Shown in pieces: positions 757 through 52,456 of a DNA stretch of 64,000 nucleotides. How positions within the stretch are numbered: the first letter of the stretch is position 1; every line of letters starts with the position of its first letter. The position numbers were made by a program, and so were the translations under genes. The stretch comes from Escherichia coli (lineage in GTDB: Bacteria > Pseudomonadota > Gammaproteobacteria > Enterobacterales > Enterobacteriaceae), in the NCBI RefSeq assembly GCF_048403405.1, contig NZ_CP183129.1, one strand, 5' to 3'. The notes below the pieces were generated by a model. That model saw only the letters and a program-made list of their open reading frames with translations, was not told the origin of the DNA and did no database searches.

Positions 757-2338
757 GTGGTGTTGTCTCCTCTTCCGGCCTGCGACTCTCCGCTATCTGC
801 TGCTGATACGCCTGCGCTATCCACACCGGACGTGAGAGTCCGGCTTTTTCCCGCTCTGCAGATTCCCTGACCTGCTGGCGGAAAATGTCCTGATAATCCT
901 CGCCCATCAGCGCCAGCTCTTTCTCATACGTGCTCAGTCCGGCCTCAATGCGCATCACTGATTCCTGAACCTCCTTGAGCCCGTCAATGGCCATTCTTCC
1001 GGCTCCAATCCACTCAGCCCGTGACCAGGCTGATCGCGCCTGATAAAAATCAAAACGTGCCCGTGGCGGACGAATAATCCCCCGAAGAAGTGCCTCTTCC
1101 AGCCAGCAGGAAAACATCTGCGTGGCCAGCCGGGACGCAATAAATTTTCGCCGCCCCATAAAATAGCGCCACGACTCATTGGCGGATGCGCGGGCACTTG
1201 AATAACTGACCTTCGAGTAATCACGGGACAACTGTTCGTAGGAAACGCCAAGACCGGCGGCGATATACCGCAGCAGCGCCTGTTCAAGCGCCGAAAATCC
1301 ATTGTCTGAATCCTGCGCGGTCTGAAGTTTCAGATCATCACCGGGGAAAAGGTGCGGAATTTTGACACCGCCCAGCGTCACGCTATTCGTGTCATACCAG
1401 GTGGAGAACTTATCCAGAATATTAATAAGCGGATTATCCTTCTGCCCCTGCGGCGCACCGGCGATATATTCAAAGGCCTTTTCGGTATCAAGGTCACTTT
1501 CAATCGTCGCTGCATACATCGCCTTCACTATGGCCGACTGAAGCTGTGTTGCCTGCAGGGAATCGAGCATCTTCAGCCGTTCCATAACGCTGTAAAACTG
1601 ATTGGCTCCACGGGTCTGCCCGTCCTCCACCGGCTCGAAAATATGCAGCATGGCCGGACGCCCGGTGGGAAGTTCACGCGGGATCCGTTCCCATCGTCCA
1701 CTCCCGGAGAACGGAAAATCATCCTCACAGATATGGTACGCGACGGCACGGCCATATCGATCGACCTCCACCCCGGCCCGCAGAAAACGGTTCCCGATAC
1801 CATGTCCTGGCGTGTCCACCCGTTTCGGACTCACGGCTTTAAAACGCGTACGAAACAGTTGCGTGCTCTCCGGATCCCAGACCGGCTGCACAAAGATTTC
1901 GCCGTTAAACGCATGAACGCCCACACCTTCACGAATAAATTCTGTAAACGTGCGTTTCCCTTCCACGTCGATCTCGCCAAACACCCCTTCTGCGTATTCT
2001 GACCAGGCCGCCTCCACCTCATCGACAAAACTTTTTGTCGCGGTCTCCCGCATCCCCAACCAGCGCCAGTTCGGGCGGTAGCTGATAAGAAACATATGCC
2101 CGACAATGTGATCCTTATGCAGGGCCACCGCATTGGCCGCTATCCCGTTATTGCGCACCAGATCATCTGCCCGGGCATTCCCCAGACGCAACGCGGGCAG
2201 CAGGGCCGCATCGGCACTCTGCGCCGGTGGCAACCACTCCGCCATTTGCCCGCCAAATCCTGCGCCGCCCCCGTTGTAGCTGAGGCTCTCCCGAAGCGGA
2301 ACGCCGTTCACATCAATCAGGACAGGCGTTCGTTTCAT
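746..2338 (-). CDS. Portal protein (lambda gpB-like)
   Basis: 530-aa ORF starting MKRTPVLIDVNGVPLRESLSYNGGGAGFGGQ; position between W and C as in lambda. Confidence 0.9.
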   Translation of the reverse strand: MKRTPVLIDVNGVPLRESLSYNGGGAGFGGQMAEWLPPAQSADAALLPALRLGNARADDLVRNNGIAANAVALHKDHIVGHMFLISYRPNWRWLGMRETATKSFVDEVEAAWSEYAEGVFGEIDVEGKRTFTEFIREGVGVHAFNGEIFVQPVWDPESTQLFRTRFKAVSPKRVDTPGHGIGNRFLRAGVEVDRYGRAVAYHICEDDFPFSGSGRWERIPRELPTGRPAMLHIFEPVEDGQTRGANQFYSVMERLKMLDSLQATQLQSAIVKAMYAATIESDLDTEKAFEYIAGAPQGQKDNPLINILDKFSTWYDTNSVTLGGVKIPHLFPGDDLKLQTAQDSDNGFSALEQALLRYIAAGLGVSYEQLSRDYSKVSYSSARASANESWRYFMGRRKFIASRLATQMFSCWLEEALLRGIIRPPRARFDFYQARSAWSRAEWIGAGRMAIDGLKEVQESVMRIEAGLSTYEKELALMGEDYQDIFRQQVRESAEREKAGLSRPVWIAQAYQQQIAESRRPEEETTPRET

Positions 2339-2541
2339 AACCTCACTCCCAGCGGACGACGGCGACGGCGGGTTGTCCCCAGTACCAACTCAGCATCATT
2401 GATCGCACGGTTAAGCTCATCCAGAGAGGCCGCCGTATATTCAATTCTTCGTCCATCTTTCTGGACAGACACCACCCGTTTACCGGTTAATAAATCAAGG
2501 CGCGCCTGACGCAGCGCCTGCAGTTCAGCGACTGTAACCAT
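2335..2541 (-). CDS. Head-tail joining protein (lambda gpW-like)
   Basis: 68-aa ORF between terminase large subunit and portal, overlapping both. Confidence 0.85.
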   Translation of the reverse strand: MVTVAELQALRQARLDLLTGKRVVSVQKDGRRIEYTAASLDELNRAINDAELVLGTTRRRRRPLGVRL

Positions 2542-4453
2542 TCACTCCTCCGGACAGCTTCGCTGCCAGTTCTTTAAGGGTTGGCCGGGTCGTCTCTTCT
2601 TCCCGGGATTTTGCCAGTACAGCCAGATCAAGCTGCCAGCGTTGCACGGACACACGTAATGCCGCGTAGGCATACACCAGGCAGTCCAGCGCTTCGTTAC
2701 GCCGCTTTTTGTTATCCCACAGCAGACGCATCTTTCCTTTTTCCCACTTCTCCACAAGCTCTTCCGCGACCAGTTGCTGCGCCTCTGTCTGCGAAAAAAT
2801 CTCCGGATCATCAGGAAAACGGATGGCATACGACGTGGCTTCATCCGCAGGCGTGGGCTCGGCTTTCATACGGGCATAGAGAATTTCTTTTGCGGTGTCC
2901 GTCCCCACTTCACACAGATAAACGCCCCGCTGATTGCGGGTTTTCGGCATGGTGATCACCGGCTTGCCATAGACAGACGCGCCTTTTACCGGCAGCACAC
3001 GGAAAACACCGTGTTTTTTTGACCTCTGGTAGACGATTTCACCATCGATCCCCCCGGTGTCCCAGCAGACACGGGAAATGGTCATTTCGGTGCCATCCGC
3101 ATGGCGGTATTTTTTGTTGATCGCCGCATCCACACGTAACAGCGTCTCTTCCTCATCAGGACGCCCCATAATGATGATTTTATCCACCAGAAAAGCTTCC
3201 TCTCCCGGTGCCCATCCCCAGACATACATCTCAAAACGGTTTCGCTGCGAGTCAATGCCCGCCGTCAGATAAACCACCCGGGCAGGCACCGCCGCCGTGT
3301 AACGCACAACCTTATCCATCAGCACCTGGTGATCGAGTTTTTCGCCCACGGCCTCTTCCCAGGTCTCGCCCAGCGTGGTGTTCACAAAGGTTTTCAGGCC
3401 GTTGGGATCTTTCAGTGCATCCAGCCAGTCATAGACTATCTGTACCCAGGTGGTGAACGGACTGTACGCTGTCCAGATATGGAACGTGATGGAGCGCGGC
3501 GGCGGAATTTCATTATCCGCGGCGCTGAAAAACGTCAGACCGTCACGGGTCCACATCCCCGTGTTTTCACAGATCCACCGCCCGTTGCTCTGGTCAAGCT
3601 CAGACTGATGGATCACGCAGCCATGATGTTCACAGAGGTAGAAAACGCTTTCGGGGCTGTCCTTCTCCCATTTAAGGCCAAAAGGCGTGGATTCATCGCC
3701 AAATTTCAGATACTGCTCCTCCCCACAGTGTGGGCAGGGCACATAAAAACGCATGAAATGCGCCGACTCGTTGGCCGCTTTTTCGATCTGGCAGGTGCCT
3801 TTGATTTTAGGCGTCGAGCCGCGAATGGATTTGGGCCATACAGAGCCCTCAATACGTTTATCCCCAAGCAGGGTTGGCGAACCCTCTTTTTCGACATCCG
3901 GTTCGAACGAGGAAAGTTCGTCATAGCAGACCACGTCCACGGATTTTTCACGGTAGTTTTTGGCGGCAGCGCCGCCCAGGCACCAGAAACCCACACCCGA
4001 TGAAAAGCGTTTCAGCGTGAGGGTATTGTCACGATGTTTACGCCCCAGCCATGGAAAAAGGTCTTTCAGACATGGCACATCCCGAATCGTCGCCTCCACG
4101 TGAGACTTCATAAAATCTTCAGCGGCAGAATCCGTGGGCTGAAAAAGCAGACTGTTTCGGGATTTATGCTCAATAAAATACCCGACCACCCCCAGCAACA
4201 TCTTTGTATAGCCAACACGGGCAGATTTAATCAGATTAACAGTCCGGATCTGATCATTCCCCATGCTGTTCATGATGGCGATCTGGAACGGCAGCGTTTT
4301 CCATTCTCCCTCACCATATGAAGATTCTTTAGGCAGATAATAATTTTGATCAGCCCATTCAACTGGCGTCACCGGCAATGCCCTTATCAGGGGCTGTAAT
4401 GCTGTTGTGACAGCACTCATCATATTATTCAGTTGTTGCTCTGATATATTCAT
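2525..4453 (-). CDS. Terminase large subunit (lambda gpA-like)
   Basis: ORF track 2525..4510; start moved to ATG at 4453 (MNISEQQL...) by similarity to lambda A N-terminus; conserved WADQNYYLPKES, KSARVGYTKMLLG motifs. Confidence 0.9.
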   Translation of the reverse strand: MNISEQQLNNMMSAVTTALQPLIRALPVTPVEWADQNYYLPKESSYGEGEWKTLPFQIAIMNSMGNDQIRTVNLIKSARVGYTKMLLGVVGYFIEHKSRNSLLFQPTDSAAEDFMKSHVEATIRDVPCLKDLFPWLGRKHRDNTLTLKRFSSGVGFWCLGGAAAKNYREKSVDVVCYDELSSFEPDVEKEGSPTLLGDKRIEGSVWPKSIRGSTPKIKGTCQIEKAANESAHFMRFYVPCPHCGEEQYLKFGDESTPFGLKWEKDSPESVFYLCEHHGCVIHQSELDQSNGRWICENTGMWTRDGLTFFSAADNEIPPPRSITFHIWTAYSPFTTWVQIVYDWLDALKDPNGLKTFVNTTLGETWEEAVGEKLDHQVLMDKVVRYTAAVPARVVYLTAGIDSQRNRFEMYVWGWAPGEEAFLVDKIIIMGRPDEEETLLRVDAAINKKYRHADGTEMTISRVCWDTGGIDGEIVYQRSKKHGVFRVLPVKGASVYGKPVITMPKTRNQRGVYLCEVGTDTAKEILYARMKAEPTPADEATSYAIRFPDDPEIFSQTEAQQLVAEELVEKWEKGKMRLLWDNKKRRNEALDCLVYAYAALRVSVQRWQLDLAVLAKSREEETTRPTLKELAAKLSGGVNGYSR

Positions 4454-4934
4454 CGAGTAAATCCGGTAATTTATCCCCCGCCCGCGCACACTGATTTGCC
4501 CCCTTCGCAATAAGGGTTTTCAGATGGTCAAGATGGCGCGGTGTTAAATCAGGAAACTGTCGCTGCATGGATAAAGGGATGGAATCAAGCGTACTGGATA
4601 ACGCCATTGCCAGCTTGCTGAGGGCAAAAATACAGAACCCGGTATCAATAAGTTTTCCTTTTGACACCTCATTTTTTAACTGCTGTGTAACAGCCTGTTC
4701 TGCTGTCAGTTCCCATCTGGCAATAAGCAATTTCTCCTCATAGTCGTCTTCGCTATCGCCATCAGGCACATCGTTTTTACTTCTTCTCAGATACGATATG
4801 TAAAAATCGCGCCAGGCATCCAGATCCAGTTGCCCTCGCTTATTCGATATCGGGGCACCCGGCAATTTCTGCAATCTGCGAAGCTGGCGATCGGTCAGAC
4901 TTAAATGCCTGGCAACTTCAGTCTGCGTAGCCAC
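4425..4934 (-). CDS. Terminase small subunit (lambda Nu1-like)
   Basis: 169-aa ORF, GTG start with upstream GAGGTGAGGA; C-terminal half resembles Nu1 (…PLSMQRQFPDL…RHLDHLK…). Confidence 0.8.
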   Translation of the reverse strand: MATQTEVARHLSLTDRQLRRLQKLPGAPISNKRGQLDLDAWRDFYISYLRRSKNDVPDGDSEDDYEEKLLIARWELTAEQAVTQQLKNEVSKGKLIDTGFCIFALSKLAMALSSTLDSIPLSMQRQFPDLTPRHLDHLKTLIAKGANQCARAGDKLPDLLDEYIRATTE

Positions 4935-5129
4935 TCCTCACCTCGCAAAAACTCTCACTTCACAATCACAACAAAACCGGTCATGTCCGGCTTACATGTC
5001 TATTTTTTGTGCATGTCCGGTTCACAGAAGACCTCTTTTTTTATTTTTCATATAGTTAACTTGAAGAGAAACCGGACATGGTTCCCGGAAAATTTTCATA
5101 AATAGCGAAAACCCGCGAGGTCGCCGCCC
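4935..5129. other. cos site: cosN cohesive end at 5118..5129 (AGGTCGCCGCCC, revcomp GGGCGGCGACCT) with cosB-like region toward Nu1
   Basis: 5101..5129 is the reverse complement of the lambda left-end sequence GGGCGGCGACCTCGCGGGTTTTCGCTATT; immediately upstream of Nu1. Confidence 0.8.
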
Positions 5130-5277
5130 CGTAACCTGTTGGATCGACGGAAAGGACCCGAAAACGAGAATAATTATCACTTACAGCAAGAATCGAATCT
5201 GATCTATTATGGTGCTTGCTATTATGTGCCGGCACAAGTGCGTCGTTTACCGTCATTTCACACAGAGGCATCATCAA

Positions 5278-5529
5278 ATGAAAATCAGAAATATTCTCGC
5301 TATCTCCCTTGCAACATCATCCTTCAGTTGCCTGGCATTTAAATCCTCGCCCAATGTGCTACCAGGACCAACGAATCAACTAACTGCGGTAGAAAGTAAA
5401 ATTATCGGACATTTTTATGCCCCACACAGTGCATTACCCGGAACAACCATCACAGGGACATGTGACGCCTCCCCCGTCCCGGGATGCACCTGTCCGTTTT
5501 GTACTATGCTGCGTAGCCAAAACCGATAA
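5278..5529 (+). CDS. Hypothetical small secreted Cys-rich protein (83 aa)
   Basis: ATG at 5278 after AGAGG; N-terminal signal-like MKIRNILAISLATSSFSCLA; CDASPVPGCTCPFC cluster; AT-rich; opposite strand to late operon. Confidence 0.3.
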   Translation: MKIRNILAISLATSSFSCLAFKSSPNVLPGPTNQLTAVESKIIGHFYAPHSALPGTTITGTCDASPVPGCTCPFCTMLRSQNR

Positions 5530-5590
5530 CATCCGCATTTACCTGGTATTACATGATGAGTTCACGCAGCGACTGATAGAGGAAGGAAAG

Positions 5591-5770
5591 ATGGTTAGTA
5601 AAAGCAAGGCGCATTGCCGCCGCATGCTGCAGGCATTGCAACAGACGAGAGCAGGTATTTTTGACCAGTTGGAAAACTGCCAGCATACTTTGCCCGAGTA
5701 TATCGCCATCTCATCGGAAACCAGTGCAACTCTTATTCATCGGGTTCCACCAGAGAAAAAGAAGAAATGA
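5591..5770 (+). CDS. Hypothetical small protein (59 aa)
   Basis: ATG at 5591 preceded by GGAAGGAAAG; no recognisable homology. Confidence 0.25.
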   Translation: MVSKSKAHCRRMLQALQQTRAGIFDQLENCQHTLPEYIAISSETSATLIHRVPPEKKKK

Positions 5771-5892
5771 ACAGTGAGGCGTTGTGTGGCATACAACGCC
5801 TTCTTCCATCATTCCTCGTCAGCCATGACAAAAATATAACCGCTGGCTCTTTCATTTTTCTCCTGCGTCCAGCCCCTCTCTACCTGGAAGCA

Positions 5893-6219
5893 TCAAGGAC
5901 GTGACGGCGTAAAGATAAATTGTCTCTTCACTCCCTGACAGGGGCGATTCTTTTCAAATCGCCATTTCGCCATGGCCTTCACCACTTCATCACGAAACAA
6001 ATTATGAGGCTCTGAGCGGAGAAAAACGATCCGTGTCACAGTCCCATCAGCACCAATATCGAACTTAACCTCAACCAGCCCCTTGATATAATTTGCTGCA
6101 GCATATTCCGGATATCGTGGATACACCGTCACTAATTGCCGGGGCTCATCAGCTTTTTGCTGCGAGCATCCCACTGCCAGGACAGATAACAGAAAAAGTA
6201 GTAAAAGGCGTCTTTTCAT
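5893..6219 (-). CDS. Lipoprotein with TonB C-terminal domain
   Basis: Start ATG 6219 after AGGAAT; lipobox LAVGC; …YPRYPEYAAANYIKGLVEVKFDIGADGTVTRIVFLRSEPHNLFRDEVVKAMAKWRFE aligns with TonB C-terminal domain. Confidence 0.75.
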   Translation of the reverse strand: MKRRLLLLFLLSVLAVGCSQQKADEPRQLVTVYPRYPEYAAANYIKGLVEVKFDIGADGTVTRIVFLRSEPHNLFRDEVVKAMAKWRFEKNRPCQGVKRQFIFTPSRP

Positions 6220-6529
6220 TTTTATTCCTACGGGTCTTATTCTGACAATATATCCTGTGTTCCAGACTGCCACATCACCACATCCTGTGCCATTATCTGA
6301 CTCACATTACATACATCGCATCGGGATACAGTAGTAGCACTTTCTGTAATACAGCTTCCTGTTTCTTCCACCATCGCACCGGGATAAACCCGCGAATCAT
6401 TAACGCGGTAAAAACCCGGTGTGCATCGTTTTTAATTATCCCCGCACACTCGCGCAGAGGAGTCTCCCTGTCGGGCTGCGGTCTCTGTTAATGAGGGAAT
6501 ATAGCGACGATACGGCGCATCAACAAAAC

Positions 6530-7003
6530 TTATTTCAGGCACTGAGTGCGGATATAGTCCTGTGCCCCTTCCAGTTGCTTGTGCATCGTCATCAGCCGCT
6601 CTCTGAGGGTGAAATAATCCCGTGTAACGGTGTCTGCCAGTTGGGGGCCGGTTGCATTATCCACGCCGGAGGTGGTGGGGGCTTCACGCACGGAGCCTGG
6701 ACAGGTGGCGTTGATCCGCAGGCGCTTACGACCAGCGGCAACGTCAGCGCGAAGAGTTTCATTTTCAGCTCTCGCATCGGCTAATTCCCTCGAGTATTTT
6801 GCATCGAGCGCAGCAACATCGCGCTGGCGCACCTGCATATCAGTAATGGTTGCGTTCGCCAGCTTCAGTTCACTGGCTTTGTTATCGCGCTGCGCTTTGT
6901 AGGTAATCGCGTTATCACGGTAATGGTCTGTTGCCATCCACAGCGCACCACAGGCCACCAGCAGAATAACGATAAACGCGGAAAGCATTCGGTTTATGTT
7001 CAC
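6530..7003 (-). CDS. Rz i-spanin
   Basis: 157 aa; [14 protein letters not shown]…DYFTLRERL…QLEG matches lambda Rz. Confidence 0.9.
6592..6777 (-). CDS. Rz1 o-spanin lipoprotein, embedded in Rz in +1 frame (true start probably internal MKLFALTL)
   Basis: [10 protein letters not shown] lipobox and [14 protein letters not shown] proline-rich motif as in lambda Rz1. Confidence 0.8.
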
Positions 7004-7131
7004 CCCAGCAACCCCGACGAAGACAACATCATCCAGGCCATGGAAAGAAAAAGAGCAACCAGCATTAGTGAAAATGAAATGCCGACAATTACACAGAGGA
7101 TCTTCGCCAGCGTTATGAGTTTGTCTGACAT
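7000..7131 (-). CDS. Hypothetical single-pass membrane peptide (43 aa)
   Basis: ATG 7131 preceded by AAGGGAGGA; stop overlaps Rz start (ATGA); hydrophobic core [26 protein letters not shown]. Confidence 0.45.
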
Positions 7132-7145
7132 GCTTAATCCTCCCT

Positions 7146-7328
7146 TCACGATTTCAACGCAATGACCAGTTTTGCCAGCCCATACAGCATCGGGGACACA
7201 GCAACACCGACCGCCACCCACTTAATGGCAAAAGCCAGTGCTCTGCTGATGTCATCAGTTACAGGCGCTTTCAGTTCAAGGCCATTTTTCATAGTCAACC
7301 TCAACAGAATTCGTTTACACTTCGCCAT
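7146..7328 (-). CDS. Hypothetical small protein with C-terminal hydrophobic helix (60 aa; alternative start at 7292)
   Basis: ATG 7328 preceded by AAGGGAGA; ends 14 nt before next ORF; …[27 protein letters not shown]. Confidence 0.45.
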
Positions 7329-12087: not shown

Positions 12088-13146
12088 TTATGCTTTCCAC
12101 TTCAGAACACCCGAATTTCTCGCGTGCATTAAAAAACGAATCAGCAACAACAACTGACTACCGTGTTTTTCTTCAAAATCTTTTACCCCGGCGTGTAGTT
12201 CGTTATGGCATTTACGACACAGCGGAATAACAAACAAATCGTCAGCCTTTGTTCCCATCCCTCCCAGTCCATGACCAATGATGTGATGCGGATCATCTGC
12301 CTGATTGCCACACGTCATGCATTTCTGCGTTTTTACCCAGCGCGTGTATACAGGCATCTCTTCCCGTTGTGGTTTCTGGCGCTGGAGATACTGAGCCGGA
12401 GATTCCGGATCAACGGCAATGCTGACCACCGTCTTTTCCTGTGGTGGGTTCTGTTGCTGGTGGGCGTGAGGCAGCGGCGCAAGATTTTTTGTGCGCTGTT
12501 TCAGTATGCTGGTGGCGGTCTGCTCTCCCGGTACGATGTCGCTTTCACGGTACATTGAGCGGATTTTTTCCGCACGCAACCCCAGCGAACGACGTAATAC
12601 CGCTTCCGGTAGCGCGTCCGCCACCTGATTGCGGACCGCCCACCAGGATAATTCAGCCAGCGATAATTCCCGTTCCTGCGAGCCATTCATTGCATGGCGT
12701 ATGACGTCAATCATCCATGCAGACAGGTTTTGGTGAGCAAGTTGCCCGAGTGATTCGGAGGTCTGGTCGCGCAGCTGGTTGTCGCAGTGCCAGCACAACA
12801 CCATTGCGCCGGTACCATAACGGTGAATGACGGTTTCACTGTGGTGATAATCGCCGTGTGGCCACTGGCAGGATTTAACATGGCGCAGTAACCAGTCAGA
12901 CAATGCGCCAGCGCCACCAGCAGCACGAATCACTCGTTCGTCGCTGAAAAATGGCAGTAATGATTTATCCTCCGCCAGCGGCTGGCGAACGGCAGGAACG
13001 ACCCCGGACGACAGATTACGCATGCTTTTCGGTTCCGGCTCCACCAGTACCCGGGTATTGTGGAATACCGGCATGGATTCACGGCCCGGTTTTAGCACCA
13101 CCAGCCCAAGTTCCGGTACCAGAACAGGTCGAAGTAATACCCGCAC
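12088..13146 (-). CDS. DUF968-type phage protein (YdfU-like) with C-terminal HNH-like zinc motif
   Basis: 352-aa ORF; CMTCGNQADDPHHIIGHG…CRKCHNELH; sits next to rusA/Q as ydfU does in Qin; start (GTG 13146 vs ATG 13074) uncertain. Confidence 0.7.
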   Translation of the reverse strand: MRVLLRPVLVPELGLVVLKPGRESMPVFHNTRVLVEPEPKSMRNLSSGVVPAVRQPLAEDKSLLPFFSDERVIRAAGGAGALSDWLLRHVKSCQWPHGDYHHSETVIHRYGTGAMVLCWHCDNQLRDQTSESLGQLAHQNLSAWMIDVIRHAMNGSQERELSLAELSWWAVRNQVADALPEAVLRRSLGLRAEKIRSMYRESDIVPGEQTATSILKQRTKNLAPLPHAHQQQNPPQEKTVVSIAVDPESPAQYLQRQKPQREEMPVYTRWVKTQKCMTCGNQADDPHHIIGHGLGGMGTKADDLFVIPLCRKCHNELHAGVKDFEEKHGSQLLLLIRFLMHARNSGVLKWKA

Positions 13147-13147
13147 G

Positions 13148-13426
13148 TTACCTCCAGATGCGTTGCTGGAATGTGCGGGACGGACGCGGTGGCCGTTCGG
13201 AGTAAGGGAGCCTGACGGAGATTATCCAGTGACGATAATCGAGGCTGAGGGCTTTCTTAATCTCGTATCCGTGTCTGCGGTAGCACTGAATTAGCCACTC
13301 GGCCTGTTCTTCAGTGCATGGGGGATGCTGGTACCAGTCTGACTTAAATGCATGAGAATACCGCTCGTGCGTGTGGGCAAGAACGGTCGAATTATCATGA
13401 TTGTAATATTTTGCGTTGCGTGCCAT
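13148..13426 (-). CDS. Hypothetical small phage protein (92 aa)
   Basis: ORF in operon orientation, stop abuts next gene start. Confidence 0.5.
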   Translation of the reverse strand: MARNAKYYNHDNSTVLAHTHERYSHAFKSDWYQHPPCTEEQAEWLIQCYRRHGYEIKKALSLDYRHWIISVRLPYSERPPRPSRTFQQRIWR

Positions 13427-13492
13427 CGGTTTTCTCCGGTGGCACGGTGTTACTCAGCGGGAGTTCAGCCCCGCGCAAGATTGTAGATGAGT

Positions 13493-13744
13493 TTATTCTT
13501 CTGAAAAAGCAGAAAAGCCAGCTTTTATTCCGATCTCTTTCAATGCCTGTAATGAAGTGACAAACTCACCGTCGTGCAAGATAAATCCGTCCGTCACTCG
13601 GGCATCCACAAAATTAATTAACGCAGCCCCATTTTTTTGCAAACACACAATGCGGTAATGGCTAACAATATTTCCATTTTCAACGCACACAGCATAGAGG
13701 CCATCTTCACAAAAAATTTTACGCAGTTCTTCGATGTTCATCAT
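13493..13744 (-). CDS. Hypothetical small phage protein (83 aa; same position and size as Qin rem)
   Basis: ORF immediately downstream of hok as rem is in Qin; identity not verified. Confidence 0.5.
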   Translation of the reverse strand: MMNIEELRKIFCEDGLYAVCVENGNIVSHYRIVCLQKNGAALINFVDARVTDGFILHDGEFVTSLQALKEIGIKAGFSAFSEE

Positions 13745-13860
13745 CAGAATCCTTCCGGATAATTAGCTCTCCCCTTTAAGGGACCATCCCTCTTATCCCT
13801 GCGCGCTACTTAAGTATTTTTGATTCTATTCCGGCACCGTCCAGAACTTCAAATGCGTTG

Positions 13861-13892
13861 AAAATAAAAACAAAAACCCGCCGAAGCGGGTT
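13861..13892 (-). terminator. Rho-independent terminator at 3' end of hok mRNA
   Basis: AACCCGC-CGAA-GCGGGTT stem followed by long U-rich run on minus strand. Confidence 0.6.
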
Positions 13893-13960
13893 AAGTGCGG
13901 GTGCGTTGAGGATGCCTGCCACATCAGAGGTGGCGAGGGATTTCTCCCTCGCCTGGTCTC

Positions 13961-14116
13961 TTACTCCTCAGGTTCGTAAGCTGTGAAGACAGCGACCTCC
14001 GTCTGGCCGGTTCGGATTCGTACCTCGCAGAGGTCTTTCCTCGTTACCAGTGCCGTCACTATGACGGTTAAACAGATGACGATCAGGGCGATTAACATCG
14101 CCTTTTGCTGCTTCAT
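13961..14116 (-). CDS. Hok-family type I toxin (51 aa)
   Basis: Below ORF-track length cut-off; my translation MKQQKAMLIALIVICLTVIVTALVTRKDLCEVRIRTGQTEVAVFTAYEPEE is the canonical Hok/HokD sequence. Confidence 0.85.
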   Translation of the reverse strand: MKQQKAMLIALIVICLTVIVTALVTRKDLCEVRIRTGQTEVAVFTAYEPEE

Positions 14117-14129
14117 AGCCTGCTTCTCC

Positions 14130-14235
14130 TTGACCTTTCGGTCCGTAAGAGGCTAATCTCTATGTGTCGCATAGATATGGCCTCAGATTAATGTTAAGCG
14201 TCTTGCAGGACGCGTAATGTTAACTGGGGCTTTTC
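14130..14235 (+). ncRNA. Putative Sok-like antisense RNA with its promoter, antisense to hok leader
   Basis: TTGACC-17/18nt-TAATCT promoter on plus strand overlapping hok translation start; short hairpin GCGUC…GACGC downstream; inferred from hok/sok architecture. Confidence 0.3.
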
Positions 14236-14374
14236 TCTATCTGCCTTTTGGTGTTCATGCCTGAGACAGATAGCCTCAAGCACCCGCAGTTATTCTACTT
14301 AACTAAGATTTCCCCGCAAACCGTTTTTGTCCGGCACAGTAAATATCCAACTAAACCAATGGCGTTCGCTGTAT

Positions 14375-14554
14375 TTACCGCCAGTATTCAATGCACATGA
14401 CCGCCATGAACACCCCTAAAAAAAGGGCATTTATATGTCCAAACATTAATATCAAAACATCAATTTTTTCCATATACCTTGCTGTGAAGATGATGGGCAT
14501 ACATGATGCGAACAACCAGAACGCAACAAACAAAAACTGCAATGCGTTTTTCAT
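14375..14554 (-). CDS. Hypothetical small two-helix membrane protein (59 aa)
   Basis: ATG 14554 after GGGGGAA; MKNALQFLFVAFWLFASCMPIIF…LFLGVFMAVMCIEYWR; AT-rich island between hok and nin genes. Confidence 0.45.
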   Translation of the reverse strand: MKNALQFLFVAFWLFASCMPIIFTARYMEKIDVLILMFGHINALFLGVFMAVMCIEYWR

Positions 14555-14674
14555 TATTCCCCCTACAATCAATGTGCAATAACATTTAAACACACCTCAA
14601 TTTGGCCGGACATATAAATATCTAAACCAGAAAAAATCACTTACATAGCGTTACAAACTCTTTAGTCTAAATAT

Positions 14675-15661
14675 TCATCGTAAAACATCCTCCACGCTTA
14701 TCAGTCCATTTCGTTTCAGGTAATCCATCGCCTTCTCCGGTAATTTGCAGTCCGGCTGAGCTTTTTTCAGTTGACTGACCAGTCGTTTAACCCACATTGT
14801 TAATTCGCTAACCTGGTTACCTAGCGCTGGCGACGCTACTGTCTGTTCCAGAACGTCATCAGGTACTACCGGCTCTACTGCCAACTGACTGGCATATTTG
14901 TTAATGGTAACGATAAGCTCTTGCTCGGCCTCATCCAGACAATCACCGATACCTCGCCTGTCACCGTCAAAATCATCGAAATCGGCGCGAATCCTGGCAA
15001 CCTCCCGGATTGCGGACAACACCTCACCAGGAATTACCGGAGAGTTGCCCGATAGTGCATTCTGCTCCAGTGATGCCTTTACAAACCACGCGGCCTGAAC
15101 TATTACGCCATGAATCCAGCGCAAATCAGCATCGCGATCTTTCTTTTTCATCTTTTCGCCACTTAAAGCCTGGCTTATGTGGCTACGTACAAGGTCTTCA
15201 TGTAACACCTTCGCATCCTCAATGGTGAAACCACCAGGCAGGCGAGCCGGGGTTACATGAGGGTTGCCTTCCCCCTGACTCTGAAGCATGGCGGCGCGGT
15301 AGGCATTCCAGCCTCTCACCTCTGCAATAGCGGCAACATCATCGACCGCGTACATTTTAAGAGGGTTAGGCATTGGTTTTTCTTCAGATACTACTGGCAC
15401 TGGAGGGGCGGCATAAACAGGAATAACGTCCGCTTGCTCTTTATTGCTTTCATCCGTTAAAGCCCAGAATAATTTCCCGGCCGGATGTTTGAAAATATAA
15501 GCAACTGGTTCTGCGCTATCAGCTTCGCGCCGCTTCTGTAGCTCTGCTGCCATTGCGCTCACGACTTCAACTGGTGCCCTTGCAGCAAACTCTATGTTGG
15601 TGATAAGCTCATTAAGATATTGCTCGCTGGGATACTGTTTCTTATTGGTAATAGTGGTCAT
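14675..15661 (-). CDS. Hypothetical phage protein (328 aa) sharing N-terminal module with 16025..16432
   Basis: Long ORF; contains PVYAAPPVPVVSEEK also present in upstream paralogue. Confidence 0.7.
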   Translation of the reverse strand: MTTITNKKQYPSEQYLNELITNIEFAARAPVEVVSAMAAELQKRREADSAEPVAYIFKHPAGKLFWALTDESNKEQADVIPVYAAPPVPVVSEEKPMPNPLKMYAVDDVAAIAEVRGWNAYRAAMLQSQGEGNPHVTPARLPGGFTIEDAKVLHEDLVRSHISQALSGEKMKKKDRDADLRWIHGVIVQAAWFVKASLEQNALSGNSPVIPGEVLSAIREVARIRADFDDFDGDRRGIGDCLDEAEQELIVTINKYASQLAVEPVVPDDVLEQTVASPALGNQVSELTMWVKRLVSQLKKAQPDCKLPEKAMDYLKRNGLISVEDVLR

Positions 15662-16023
15662 GCTGTAGCCCCTTCTTGATATTTTTCAAACCAGAACACA
15701 ACCGGGTCAGATTTCATTTCAACCAATCCCATACGAACCAGCGCTTTGCCTTTCCCGGACGCAAGGAATTCACGACGACCATCACTGATAATTCGCCGAT
15801 AGTCTTCCAGGCTACTGCAATGCTTGTGCAGATTGCATGGGTGGCATGCCGGAACCATGTTGGATATATCGTCACGTTCCTGGTGAAGCATATTTCCATT
15901 AAAACGAATGACCGGTTTTACATGGTCTGCATGCCACTTTTCGCCAAGTTCACAGCCGCAATAAGCACAGCGACCGCCAAACTTCATGCGCAATTCTGCA
16001 CGTTGTTTTTTCGTCAGTGCCAT
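15658..16023 (-). CDS. HNH endonuclease
   Basis: CAYCGCEL…HADHVKPV…N…CHPCNLHK HNH motif; 121 aa. Confidence 0.8.
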   Translation of the reverse strand: MALTKKQRAELRMKFGGRCAYCGCELGEKWHADHVKPVIRFNGNMLHQERDDISNMVPACHPCNLHKHCSSLEDYRRIISDGRREFLASGKGKALVRMGLVEMKSDPVVFWFEKYQEGATA

Positions 16024-16024
16024 A

Positions 16025-16432
16025 TCAGTCTCCTTTGATGCCAGTGTTTACAACCTGGCAGGCCTCTTTGAGCACCCAGTCAACAGCGTCTTTCCATGCT
16101 CCGGTTTCGACTGGCGGATTTTCACGCTTAACCTTTTCATAGAAGCGCACGGCTTTAACCAGTCCTTCAGACACAACCGGCACAGGTGGAGCTGCGAATA
16201 GTGGTTTAGGTGATATCTCCGCACGTTTTGCGTATGCTTCAACTGTGTCAGGATTAAACAGGATTATGTTTTCGCCGCATTTCCACGCTATCGGTTCCGC
16301 TTCTAGCGATGCCAGTGCAATTTTGAATAACTCACCCTCTACCCGTGCCATCCCTGAATTCGTGTGGCATTTCGCAATCGCTATTTTTAATTTGGCTTCT
16401 TCGATTAATTGCTCTTTTGTTAATTCAGTCAT
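16025..16432 (-). CDS. Hypothetical phage protein (135 aa), paralogous N-terminal module
   Basis: Contains PLFAAPPVPVVSEG; stop abuts HNH gene. Confidence 0.65.
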   Translation of the reverse strand: MTELTKEQLIEEAKLKIAIAKCHTNSGMARVEGELFKIALASLEAEPIAWKCGENIILFNPDTVEAYAKRAEISPKPLFAAPPVPVVSEGLVKAVRFYEKVKRENPPVETGAWKDAVDWVLKEACQVVNTGIKGD

Positions 16433-50266: not shown

Positions 50267-52456
50267 ATGCTTTCAACACAATTTAACAGGGATAATCAAT
50301 ATCAAACCACCTCCAAGCCGTCACTGCTTGCCGCCTGCATAGCACTGGCACTCTTACCTTCCGCCGCTTTTGCTGCACCAGCCACTGAAGAAACGGTGAT
50401 TGTTGAGGGTTCAGCCACTACTCCAGTTGATGACGAAAATGATTACAGCGTAACGTCTACCTCTGCGGGTACCAAAATGCAGATGACTCAACGTGATATT
50501 CCTCAGTCGGTCACTATTGTTAGCCAGCAGCGGATGGAAGATCAGCAGTTACAAACGCTGGGCGAAGTGATGGAAAACACGCTGGGGATCAGCAAAAGTC
50601 AGGCGGATTCCGATCGTGCTCTTTATTATTCCCGCGGATTCCAGATCGATAACTATATGGTTGATGGTATCCCCACCTATTTTGAATCGCGCTGGAATCT
50701 GGGCGACGCACTTTCTGATATGGCACTGTTTGAACGCGTAGAAGTTGTGCGTGGCGCGACAGGCCTCATGACCGGGACGGGTAATCCATCTGCGGCAATT
50801 AATATGGTTCGAAAACACGCGACCAGTCGTGAATTTAAAGGCGATGTCTCGGCGGAATACGGTAGCTGGAACAAAGAACGGTATGTGGCGGATATACAAA
50901 GCCCACTCACCGAAGATGGTAAAATCCGCGCACGAATTGTCGGCGGCTACCAGAATAACGACTCATGGCTGGACCGCTACAACAGTGAAAAGACCTTCTT
51001 CTCCGGCATTGTCGATGCTGATTTAGGCGATCTTACGATGCTTTCAGCCGGTTACGAATATCAGCGTATTGATGTTAATAGCCCAACCTGGGGCGGTTTA
51101 CCGCGCTGGAATACTGATGGCAGCAGCAACAGTTACGATCGCGCACGCAGTACCGCACCTGACTGGGCGTACAACGATAAAGAGATCAACAAGGTCTTTA
51201 TGACCCTGAAGCAGCGGTTTGCTGATACCTGGCAAGCGACACTGAATGCCACCCACTCCGAAGTCGAATTTGACAGCAAAATGATGTATGTCGATGCCTA
51301 TGTAAACAAAGCGGATGGTATGCTGGTTGGGCCATACAGTAATTATGGACCTGGCTTTGATTATGTCGGCGGCACCGGTTGGAACAGCGGCAAACGTAAA
51401 GTTGATGCGCTGGATTTGTTCGCTGACGGTAGTTATGAATTGTTTGGTCGTCAGCACAATCTAATGTTTGGTGGCAGTTACAGCAAACAAAACAATCGTT
51501 ACTTCAGTTCATGGGCCAACATCTTCCCGGATGAAATTGGCAGTTTCTACAACTTTAATGGCAATTTCCCACAAACCGACTGGTCACCACAGAGTCTGGC
51601 GCAGGACGATACCACACATATGAAATCGTTATATGCTGCCACTCGTGTCACCCTTGCCGATCCGCTGCATCTGATCCTCGGCGCACGTTATACCAACTGG
51701 CGGGTTGATACGCTGACTTACAGCATGGAGAAAAACCACACCACGCCTTATGCTGGTTTGGTATTTGACATCAATGACAACTGGTCGACCTACGCCAGCT
51801 ATACCTCTATTTTCCAGCCGCAAAATGATCGTGACAGTTCAGGCAAATATCTGGCTCCAATCACCGGTAACAACTACGAGCTGGGTCTGAAATCGGACTG
51901 GATGAATAGCCGTCTGACCACCACGTTAGCCATCTTCCGTATTGAGCAGGATAATGTCGCTCAGTCCACCGGTACACCTATCCCCGGCAGCAACGGCGAA
52001 ACCGCCTATAAAGCGGTGGATGGGACAGTCAGTAAAGGTGTGGAATTTGAACTCAACGGCGCAATTACCGACAACTGGCAGCTGACGTTTGGCGCAACGC
52101 GCTATATTGCAGAGGATAACGAAGGAAACGCCGTTAATCCTAATCTGCCACGCACCACGGTTAAAATGTTCACCAGCTACCGGTTGCCTGTCATGCCAGA
52201 GTTGACGGTCGGCGGTGGTGTTAACTGGCAAAATCGCGTGTATACCGACACCGTGACACCGTATGACACCTTCCGCGCCGAGCAAGGTAGCTACGCGCTG
52301 GTGGATCTCTTCACCCGCTACCAGGTGACGAAAAACTTCTCGTTACAGGGGAACGTCAATAACCTGTTCGACAAAACCTACGATACCAACGTGGAAGGTT
52401 CTATCGTCTACGGCGCACCGCGTAATTTCAGCATTACCGGCACGTATCAATTCTGA
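50267..52456 (+). CDS. fhuE: TonB-dependent ferric-coprogen/rhodotorulic acid receptor FhuE
   Basis: 729 aa, signal peptide, TonB box region, C-terminal …TGTYQF. Confidence 0.95.
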   Translation: MLSTQFNRDNQYQTTSKPSLLAACIALALLPSAAFAAPATEETVIVEGSATTPVDDENDYSVTSTSAGTKMQMTQRDIPQSVTIVSQQRMEDQQLQTLGEVMENTLGISKSQADSDRALYYSRGFQIDNYMVDGIPTYFESRWNLGDALSDMALFERVEVVRGATGLMTGTGNPSAAINMVRKHATSREFKGDVSAEYGSWNKERYVADIQSPLTEDGKIRARIVGGYQNNDSWLDRYNSEKTFFSGIVDADLGDLTMLSAGYEYQRIDVNSPTWGGLPRWNTDGSSNSYDRARSTAPDWAYNDKEINKVFMTLKQRFADTWQATLNATHSEVEFDSKMMYVDAYVNKADGMLVGPYSNYGPGFDYVGGTGWNSGKRKVDALDLFADGSYELFGRQHNLMFGGSYSKQNNRYFSSWANIFPDEIGSFYNFNGNFPQTDWSPQSLAQDDTTHMKSLYAATRVTLADPLHLILGARYTNWRVDTLTYSMEKNHTTPYAGLVFDINDNWSTYASYTSIFQPQNDRDSSGKYLAPITGNNYELGLKSDWMNSRLTTTLAIFRIEQDNVAQSTGTPIPGSNGETAYKAVDGTVSKGVEFELNGAITDNWQLTFGATRYIAEDNEGNAVNPNLPRTTVKMFTSYRLPVMPELTVGGGVNWQNRVYTDTVTPYDTFRAEQGSYALVDLFTRYQVTKNFSLQGNVNNLFDKTYDTNVEGSIVYGAPRNFSITGTYQF

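Follow-up and report, generated by a model that had tools for sequence, protein, structure and literature searches.

A 64,000-nucleotide (nt) stretch of Escherichia coli DNA (assembly GCF_048403405.1, contig NZ_CP183129.1; hereafter the window) includes, in a prophage of the lambda/phage-21 type, a gene on the minus strand (5893-6219) coding for a 108-amino acid (aa) protein. The protein is a stand-alone, lipoprotein-type, periplasm-facing TonB C-terminal domain. The gene is tentatively read as prophage cargo, namely as an outer-membrane-anchored, energy-uncoupled copy of the TonB docking domain which might act as a decoy and mediate exclusion.

Lipoprotein signal and TonB C-terminal fold

The coding sequence runs from ATG to TGA (108 codons, with the stop codon within the coordinates given above), and is preceded by a ribosome-binding site (AGGA, 6226-6229, minus strand; 7-10 nt 5' of the start), annotated as such in the identical phage 21 sequence. 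The earlier note on this DNA had described a 108-aa lipoprotein at this place with the lipobox LAVGC, and both the position of the open reading frame (ORF) and the string are correct. The N-terminal lipoprotein signal, as read directly from the sequence, is MKRRLLLLFLLSVLAVG|C18-S19. Signal peptide (residues 1-17) and lipobox Cys18 map at 6166-6219 on the minus strand, and are made up by a basic n-region, a 12-residue hydrophobic core and the lipobox A-V-G-C (MKRR-LLLLFLLSVL-AVG-C), the cysteine being residue 18. The features used to recognize lipoproteins (basic n-region, hydrophobic core, [LVI/A][ASTV][GAS]C) are thus all found in the 108-aa protein. Cys18 is unchanged across a 13-sequence alignment of the lipoprotein subfamily, and Asp is found at position +2 in no lipoprotein member of the family. 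A few more distant relatives with Sec signals (P0059, P0085, P0097) have no lipobox Cys. Since position +2 is occupied by Ser19, there is no Asp signal for retention in the inner membrane, and sorting to the outer membrane is predicted. According to the established lipobox and +2 rules, the protein should be both acylated and sorted to the outer membrane.

The TonB C-terminal domain, as delimited by sequence and model matches, spans residues 24-103 (5911-6150, minus strand), and its elements are in the order beta-alpha-beta-beta-alpha-beta. Residues 33-99 match Pfam TonB_C (PF03544; E 9.1e-13), and the NCBIfam model TIGR01352 (tonB_Cterm) scores 47.4 bits, the cut-off being 27.1. The C-terminal domain of E. 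coli TonB (1u07 in the PDB) matches residues 24-103 (E 1.4e-14), which correspond to the whole mature protein except for short tails (residues 18-23 and 104-108). Pfam, NCBIfam and PDB matches all agree with the full-length alignment to this domain, and with the VKFDI pattern, to which attention had been drawn earlier. The shared pattern reads VKFDIGADGTV / FRDEVVKAMAKWRFE in the prophage protein, and VKFDVTPDGRV / FEREVKNAMRRWRYE in TonB. Identity to E. coli TonB is only 38-40%. The TonB aromatic residues Y163, F180, F202, W213 and F230 are kept in the alignment to 1u07, and Y215 is replaced by F.

A single-sequence AlphaFold2 run gave a predicted local distance difference test (pLDDT) value of 51, and was therefore replaced by a model obtained from a 57-sequence alignment, in which pLDDT is 86-92 over the TonB C-terminal domain. 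In Foldseek comparisons, this model matches 1u07_A, 2gsk_B and 2grx_C with target-normalised template modelling (TM) scores of 0.90-0.93, a root mean square deviation of 0.8-0.9 Å and a probability of 1.00. Structures matched by the model include BtuB- and FhuA-bound forms of the TonB domain (2gsk_B and 2grx_C). The TonB-C fold, for which the earlier note had indicated structure prediction as a check, is therefore upheld. Five residues only follow strand beta3, and this leaves the beta3 edge free.

The protein is not a full-length TonB energy transducer. The TonB equivalog models of NCBIfam (NF008080-NF008084) score 45-69 bits vs. cut-offs of 265-448, and align through their last ~85 profile positions only. 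Both the membrane anchor and the proline-rich rod of TonB are absent, the N-terminus being a cleavable lipoprotein signal, and energy transduction is therefore impossible for the prophage protein. Decaying tonB fragments were considered as well, and rejected. Comparison with the JLK-2012 variant, which is 72% identical, gave a ratio of nonsynonymous to synonymous substitution rates (dN/dS) of 0.12, indicating purifying selection; synonymous sites are nearly saturated. Older annotations found in ev017, CP-933N and Perceval ('partial tonB-like membrane protein', 'TonB fragment') would suit an inert remnant of a captured tonB gene. Such an origin is scarcely credible, being effectively refuted by the selection analysis, and is further contradicted by the purpose-built lipoprotein signal peptide, by the divergence from E. 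coli TonB (38-40% identity), and by length and architecture, which are conserved across genera.

Promoter motifs and Fur boxes

A candidate extended -10 element, TGTCAGAAT, is found upstream of the gene (6239-6247, minus strand), and aligns with TGTTAGAAT in JLK-2012 and with TGTTAGTAT in a Salmonella phage. Elements of this class were defined as TG followed by a hexamer with A at position 2 and T at position 6, with at least 6 of 8 matches, located at most 90 nt upstream of the start. The motif is present in the upstream regions of 8 out of 11 family members, the expected number being 0.096 per region.

In many relatives a Fur operator is found directly downstream of the extended -10 element. 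Operators were scored against the 7-1-7 motif TGATAATnATTATCA (out of 14) and, separately, against a 19-mer (out of 19). The match is perfect in the Salmonella phage (P0037; 14/14, at -29 from the start), 13/14 in P0040 (at -30) and in an Erwinia chromosomal copy (P0217; at -31), and 11/14 in Gibbsiella (P0041; at -31, 15/19 to the 19-mer), in P0050 (at -58) and in a Pantoea phage (P0059; at -89). As for background, sites scoring at least 13/14 total four in 70.7 kb of the same loci, and two of these four are family upstream boxes. The two other 13/14 sites reside in the gap between HNH endonuclease and terminase small subunit genes, in the Salmonella phage (~1475) and in a Klebsiella phage (~7560), and may be either chance AT-rich matches or a shared regulatory feature.

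A 13/19 palindrome is still present in the JLK-2012-type copy. Relative to this, the window type has a 13-nt deletion, which takes away the right half-site of the Fur box. To judge from these upstream regions, the family appears to be ancestrally iron-regulated and transcribed on its own. Fur boxes and promoter-like motifs would tie the family to TonB and iron biology independently of domain homology. Control by Fur has probably been lost in the window copy, which may be expressed from the extended -10 element, by read-through from the late operon, or both.

A possible decoy of TonB

After sorting by the Lol system, a tether of ~5-8 residues would link the domain to the outer membrane's inner leaflet. 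This is the height at which the TonB boxes of TonB-dependent transporters, and of imported colicins, become accessible. TonB boxes bind TonB beta3 by beta-augmentation (PMC11658791), and an uncoupled copy of the domain would hence compete with TonB. The prophage domain could capture TonB boxes on its free beta3 edge, through beta-strand augmentation, or else form heterodimers with the C-terminal domain of TonB itself, titrating the scarcer partner. Either route would result in competition with TonB, and in damped TonB-dependent translocation. Cells should then tolerate group B colicins, siderophore-microcins and phages which depend on TonB (T1 and phi80 types), but take up siderophores somewhat less well. 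In relatives, Fur control would limit expression to iron limitation, when receptors are most abundant. As a precedent for such competition, inhibition of iron import mediated by TonB-dependent transporters upon overexpression of a periplasmic TonB domain in E. coli is mentioned in PMC9841981 (citing Howard 2001), as is the ability of TonB-box peptides to lower both colicin killing and phi80 infection (citing Tuckman & Osburne 1992).

The J protein of phage 21 is 83% identical to lambda J, homologous along its length, and diverged at the C-terminus. A lambda-J-like J protein makes self-exclusion unlikely, and exclusion would be aimed at other phages or at colicins. The interpretation given in the earlier note, a periplasmic decoy interfering with TonB-dependent phages or colicins, is in part supported: identity of the protein, class of location and plausibility of the idea hold, mechanism and phenotype having the status of a plausible proposal.

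Several observations weigh against a decoy. Residues by which TonB contacts receptors, as known from genetics and structures, are changed in the prophage protein: in the alignment to 1u07, R158 is replaced by T, and both Q160 and R166 by Y. In a fusion made up by the mature domain, a 25-residue Gly/Ser linker and FhuA residues 1-20 (including the TonB box), AlphaFold2 folded the domain but left the FhuA TonB box undocked, the peptide having pLDDT values of 52-58 and forming no strand; the run had no TonB positive control, and does not count as a negative result. A constitutive TonB blocker should be costly in the 23% of E. coli which carry the gene, siderophore-dependent pathogens included. 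A Fur-induced inhibitor, produced just when iron uptake is needed, is paradoxical, unless inhibition is partial or selective. At the same time, the window copy has no Fur box near the promoter, the best match (11/19) lying ~185-220 nt upstream, and a standard sigma-70 -35/-10 scan revealed no minus-strand promoter upstream of the gene. No PADLOC defence model matches the gene. Chromosomal, non-phage homologues are found in Gibbsiella (beside ahpCF) and in Erwinia/Pantoea, and suggest a housekeeping role rather than exclusion. Finally, the bacteriocin encoded next to the family member of a Pantoea prophage (see below) has a Gly-rich, colicin-E-like N-terminus without a clear TonB box. N-termini of this type are typical of Tol-dependent colicins.

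Replacement of R158, Q160 and R166 implies that the target specificity may not be TonB boxes. The TonB C-terminal fold could have been re-targeted to another partner, such as a bacteriocin or phage protein, a periplasmic substrate, peptidoglycan, or Lpp/OmpA. The closest relatives often have Tyr in place of R166, and in most of the closest short relatives Lys or Arg stands where TonB has V226, in beta3. Structural neighbours in the PDB include the C-terminal domain of FusB (9hi3), which binds a protein substrate, ferredoxin. The copy in the Pantoea prophage directly follows a DNase bacteriocin and its immunity gene, and another copy, in a plasmid-like contig, resides beside Qat defence genes. 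Yet beta-augmentation is established by main-chain contacts, and changes in side chains need not end the binding of TonB boxes; moreover, no candidate partner gene consistently adjoins the family. All considered, re-targeting looks improbable.

Two of these loci deserve description. In the Pantoea agglomerans prophage (1278-4324), a 769-aa Pyocin_S/colicin-DNase bacteriocin and the immunity gene are located between the lysis cassette and the TonB_C homologue. In the plasmid-like contig (4001-8390), the 129-aa homologue P0071 is found after ParM/StbB and before DUF6694, a KAP NTPase and QatB, a component of the Qat anti-phage system. Upstream of P0071 there is a perfect 10-nt inverted repeat (ATCCTGTAAA...TTTACAGGAT) instead of a Fur box.

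The decoy hypothesis may be extended to the family as a whole. Its members, shared by enterobacteria and their temperate phages, could be Fur-controlled periplasmic 'anti-TonB' proteins, mostly tethered to the outer membrane, which cap TonB boxes or trap TonB. A single protein would then provide a receptor-agnostic shield, captured by phages as a moron, against every TonB-dependent phage, group B colicin and siderophore-microcin. This extension is possible but doubtful. Were it correct, the SitABCD system carried by phage-21-type phages could offset the iron cost.

Genomic position and the accessory island

The gene is located after Rz/Rz1 and before the gene for the terminase small subunit (4425-4934, minus strand), the first packaging gene downstream, and has the same orientation as both. 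The Rz i-spanin gene (6530-7003, minus strand), identified from the translations and annotated as 'lysis protein' in RefSeq, has the Rz1 o-spanin embedded (6592-6777), which features a VSAC lipobox and a PPPPP stretch. A complete spanin pair is therefore present in the phage without the 108-aa protein. The location had been described as the far end of the late operon. This is true for the linear virion map, in which the gene is at the right end by cos, in the slot of lambda bor; it does not hold for the prophage, in which the gene is inside the late transcription unit. The moron-type location, with the gene as prophage cargo in a bor-type slot between Rz/Rz1 and cos/terminase, is borne out.

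The gene is part of an accessory (moron) island of ~1.2 kb (5160-6381), delimited by blastn breakpoints (6381 and 5160) against Lambda_4C10. In the latter, ~96 nt are found in place of the island, between flanks common to both. Phage 21 and the DLP12-like prophage of strain SK1144 both have the island at 98.7% identity, on backbones which differ. By definition (PMC3594210), morons are independent transcription units inserted into phage genomes, and a discrete presence/absence insertion between conserved phage genes is as expected of them. The slot between lysis cassette and terminase is used, on the same strand, in six backbones: the lambda/phage-21 type of the window, JLK-2012, a Salmonella HK97-like phage, a Klebsiella phage, a Rahnella lambdoid prophage and a Pantoea prophage. 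In phage 21 and in strain SK1144 bor/iss lies between the gene and Rz.

The proximity to Rz raises the question of whether the protein is a late-lysis accessory, possibly spanin-like, made from the late transcript and helping to disrupt or detach the outer membrane. In phages the gene is always found just 3' of the lysis cassette, in the same orientation, and the standard scan detected no sigma-70 promoter of its own. In addition, the protein is matched end to end by phrog_1267, labelled 'Rz-like spanin' (E 5e-43). This family and phrog_34172, both TonB-like, are the only ones found at meaningful E-values in the PHROG search, which revealed no homology to Cor or Llp. However, the prophage already has the full Rz/Rz1 pair, and the 108-aa protein features a folded 85-residue domain, unlike the short proline-rich o-spanins. 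Homologues are found on chromosomes and in a plasmid-like contig without lysis genes, bor/iss separates the gene from Rz in phage 21 and SK1144, and both the Fur boxes and the promoter-like motifs point to expression which does not depend on lysis. A lysis function is thus very unlikely. An assignment as Rz1-like o-spanin was rejected, the protein having a folded domain and homologues outside phages, and the genuine Rz1 being inside Rz; the spanin label of phrog_1267 looks like a positional mis-annotation of TonB_C lipoproteins.

Other ORFs are found in the island. A small ORF upstream of the gene (6237-6374, minus strand; 45 aa, CPT_21_72 in phage 21) has no family match. A convergent unit is located on the plus strand. 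Its first ORF (5278-5529), absent from the annotation of the RefSeq record, codes for 83 aa with a signal-peptide-like N-terminus, and belongs to a family of conserved hypothetical proteins, 55-77% identical, found in Citrobacter, Klebsiella and Salmonella; four C-terminal Cys residues are present in the window ORF. The second (5591-5770, 59 aa; WP_000253883.1) corresponds to phrog_4843, of unknown function. A Fur-box-like palindrome resides at the island edge (5160-5184), ~95 nt upstream of the 83-aa ORF. It scores 15/19, the joint top score of the window, and 12/14 to the 7-1-7 motif. The sole other 12/14 Fur-like site of the window falls in codons 8-12 of fhuE, hence not in a promoter, and was not used as positive control. 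The fhuE gene (50267-52456, plus strand) codes for the chromosomal TonB-dependent coprogen/rhodotorulate receptor (1537 bits to NF007447), with an ETVIV TonB box near 50388. On a Klebsiella plasmid, a copy of the 83-aa ORF adjoins genes for a CobW GTPase and a FUR-family regulator, with a box scoring 13/19 about as far away as in the window. In Salmonella salamae the ORF accompanies bor, an omptin and a SPATE autotransporter in a virulence islet.

Alternatively, the protein might serve host physiology as an accessory of the TonB system in iron homeostasis, acting as a brake or buffer on futile TonB engagement or iron overload, or holding transporters or TonB at the outer membrane. Fur boxes are found in chromosomal as in phage members, chromosomal homologues in Gibbsiella and Erwinia/Pantoea are outside prophages, and the joint-best Fur-like box of the window belongs to the convergent neighbour within the island. 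Furthermore, sitABCD, which codes for a TonB-independent Fe/Mn ABC importer (at 12968-16417 in phage 21, downstream of the side tail fibre), accompanies the identical gene in all of its six distinct phages (seven records). Without energy coupling, on the other hand, a positive role in transport is hard to picture, and the Fur box is gone from the window copy. Also, sit is found in 20 records which do not have the gene, the Stx1a/JLK-2012 phages, which carry the 72% variant, are not among the sitA matches, and the association with sit may reflect shared ancestry. On balance an accessory role in iron homeostasis is rather unlikely, and the same can be said of its corollary, that phages carry the gene as fitness-conversion cargo along with other iron genes.

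A hairpin (GGCGTTGT-n7-ACAACGCC) is found between the convergent units (5778-5800). It is a possible bidirectional terminator, the U-tract of which is better on the plus strand than on the minus strand, where it is weak. The hairpin is not among the calls of a simple terminator scan, and shuffled sequence folds about as well as the 156 nt around it (z -1.17). Outside the island, a block of ~140 nt located just 3' of Rz (6381-6520, minus strand) shows 87-88% conservation among lambdoid phages, whether or not these have the island (Lambda_4C10, JLK-2012). The block contains nested hairpins (CACCGGG...CCCGGTG around CCGCG...CGCGG), with a loop varying between phages. An Rfam search of the 4700-7300 region, this leader block included, gave no match.

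Distribution of the family

The gene was found in 1224 out of 5426 complete E. coli genomes (~23%), with at least 99% identity in 1202, and the annotation of these copies is always 'TonB family protein'. Identity is 100% to CPT_21_73 of phage 21 ('TonB C-terminal domain protein') and to the RefSeq entry WP_000830178.1 ('TonB family protein'). The identical gene is also present in ev017, Perceval and three PhiR phages, the 72% variant in Stx1a-converting and JLK-2012-type phages. Strain EC147566 has just the initial 107 nt of the gene (NZ_CP139360.1, 3496364-3496470), under the annotation 'phage tail tip protein'; this partial copy is probably a recombination junction or a truncation.

The short relatives (98-133 aa) which an exhaustive profile-free search identified share 31-46% identity, and carry lipoboxes or Sec-type signals. 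The names of their clusters refer to Salmonella and Klebsiella prophages, and to Gibbsiella, Rahnella, Erwinia and Pantoea. In a scan of viral contigs, only close E. coli variants were found among the top 80.

Significance

The domain, the gene annotation and the recorded architecture (lipobox and TonB_C only) are already known, the function being uncharacterised. No functional study of a protein with lipobox and TonB_C only was found in the full-text literature, most subscription journals being outside the scope of the search. The selection analysis is new, as are the boundaries of the island, the slot shared by six backbones, the promoter-like motif, and the Fur boxes upstream of related genes.

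Many coliphages, colicins and microcins enter through TonB-dependent transporters, as do siderophore-antibiotic conjugates (cefiderocol-type 'Trojan horses'). If the decoy hypothesis is true, a mobile TonB damper could alter phage host range in therapy cocktails, change the outcome of bacteriocin competition in the gut, and affect the susceptibility to siderophore-drug conjugates. It would also be the natural counterpart of TonB-fragment experiments engineered decades ago, and a simple tool for titrating TonB function. With its Fur boxes, the family also becomes a new, concrete and testable candidate member of the iron regulon of enterobacteria.

Comparison with known systems

The closest relative of known function is TonB itself. 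The prophage protein has the same fold as the C-terminal domain of E. coli TonB (P02929, residues ~150-239), and keeps the YP motif, the core aromatic residues and beta3. It differs from TonB because it has neither the transmembrane anchor, which is the part coupling to ExbB/ExbD, nor the Pro-rich spacer, and features a lipid anchor, predicted to reside in the opposite membrane. HasB and FusB also have a diverged TonB C-terminal domain, with altered partner specificity, but both keep membrane anchor and energy transduction, unlike the prophage protein. Engineered periplasmic TonB fragments (Howard, Herrmann, Stratilo & Braun 2001, J Bacteriol 183:5885), in the account given in PMC9841981, are similarly energy-uncoupled TonB domains in the periplasm. 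These fragments are artificial, soluble and overexpressed pieces of E. coli TonB itself, the prophage protein being natural, diverged, predicted to be lipid-anchored, and perhaps under its own control.

Among proteins encoded by phages, the Rz1 o-spanins are also outer-membrane lipoproteins encoded beside Rz; what sets the 108-aa protein apart is the folded TonB_C domain, together with homologues outside phages and Fur boxes in relatives. Lambda Bor/Iss is an outer-membrane lipoprotein as well, encoded in the slot between Rz and cos, and co-resides with the gene in phage 21 and SK1144. It differs in fold and function, both unrelated (Bor/Iss confers serum resistance), and bor is on the opposite strand. 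Cor, found in phi80, N15, HK022 and T1, is a small superinfection-exclusion lipoprotein which blocks FhuA from the periplasmic side. Llp of T5 is likewise a small phage lipoprotein of the outer membrane blocking FhuA, a TonB-dependent receptor, from the periplasmic side. Both Cor and Llp are receptor-specific, whereas a TonB mimic could in principle act on all TonB-box proteins.

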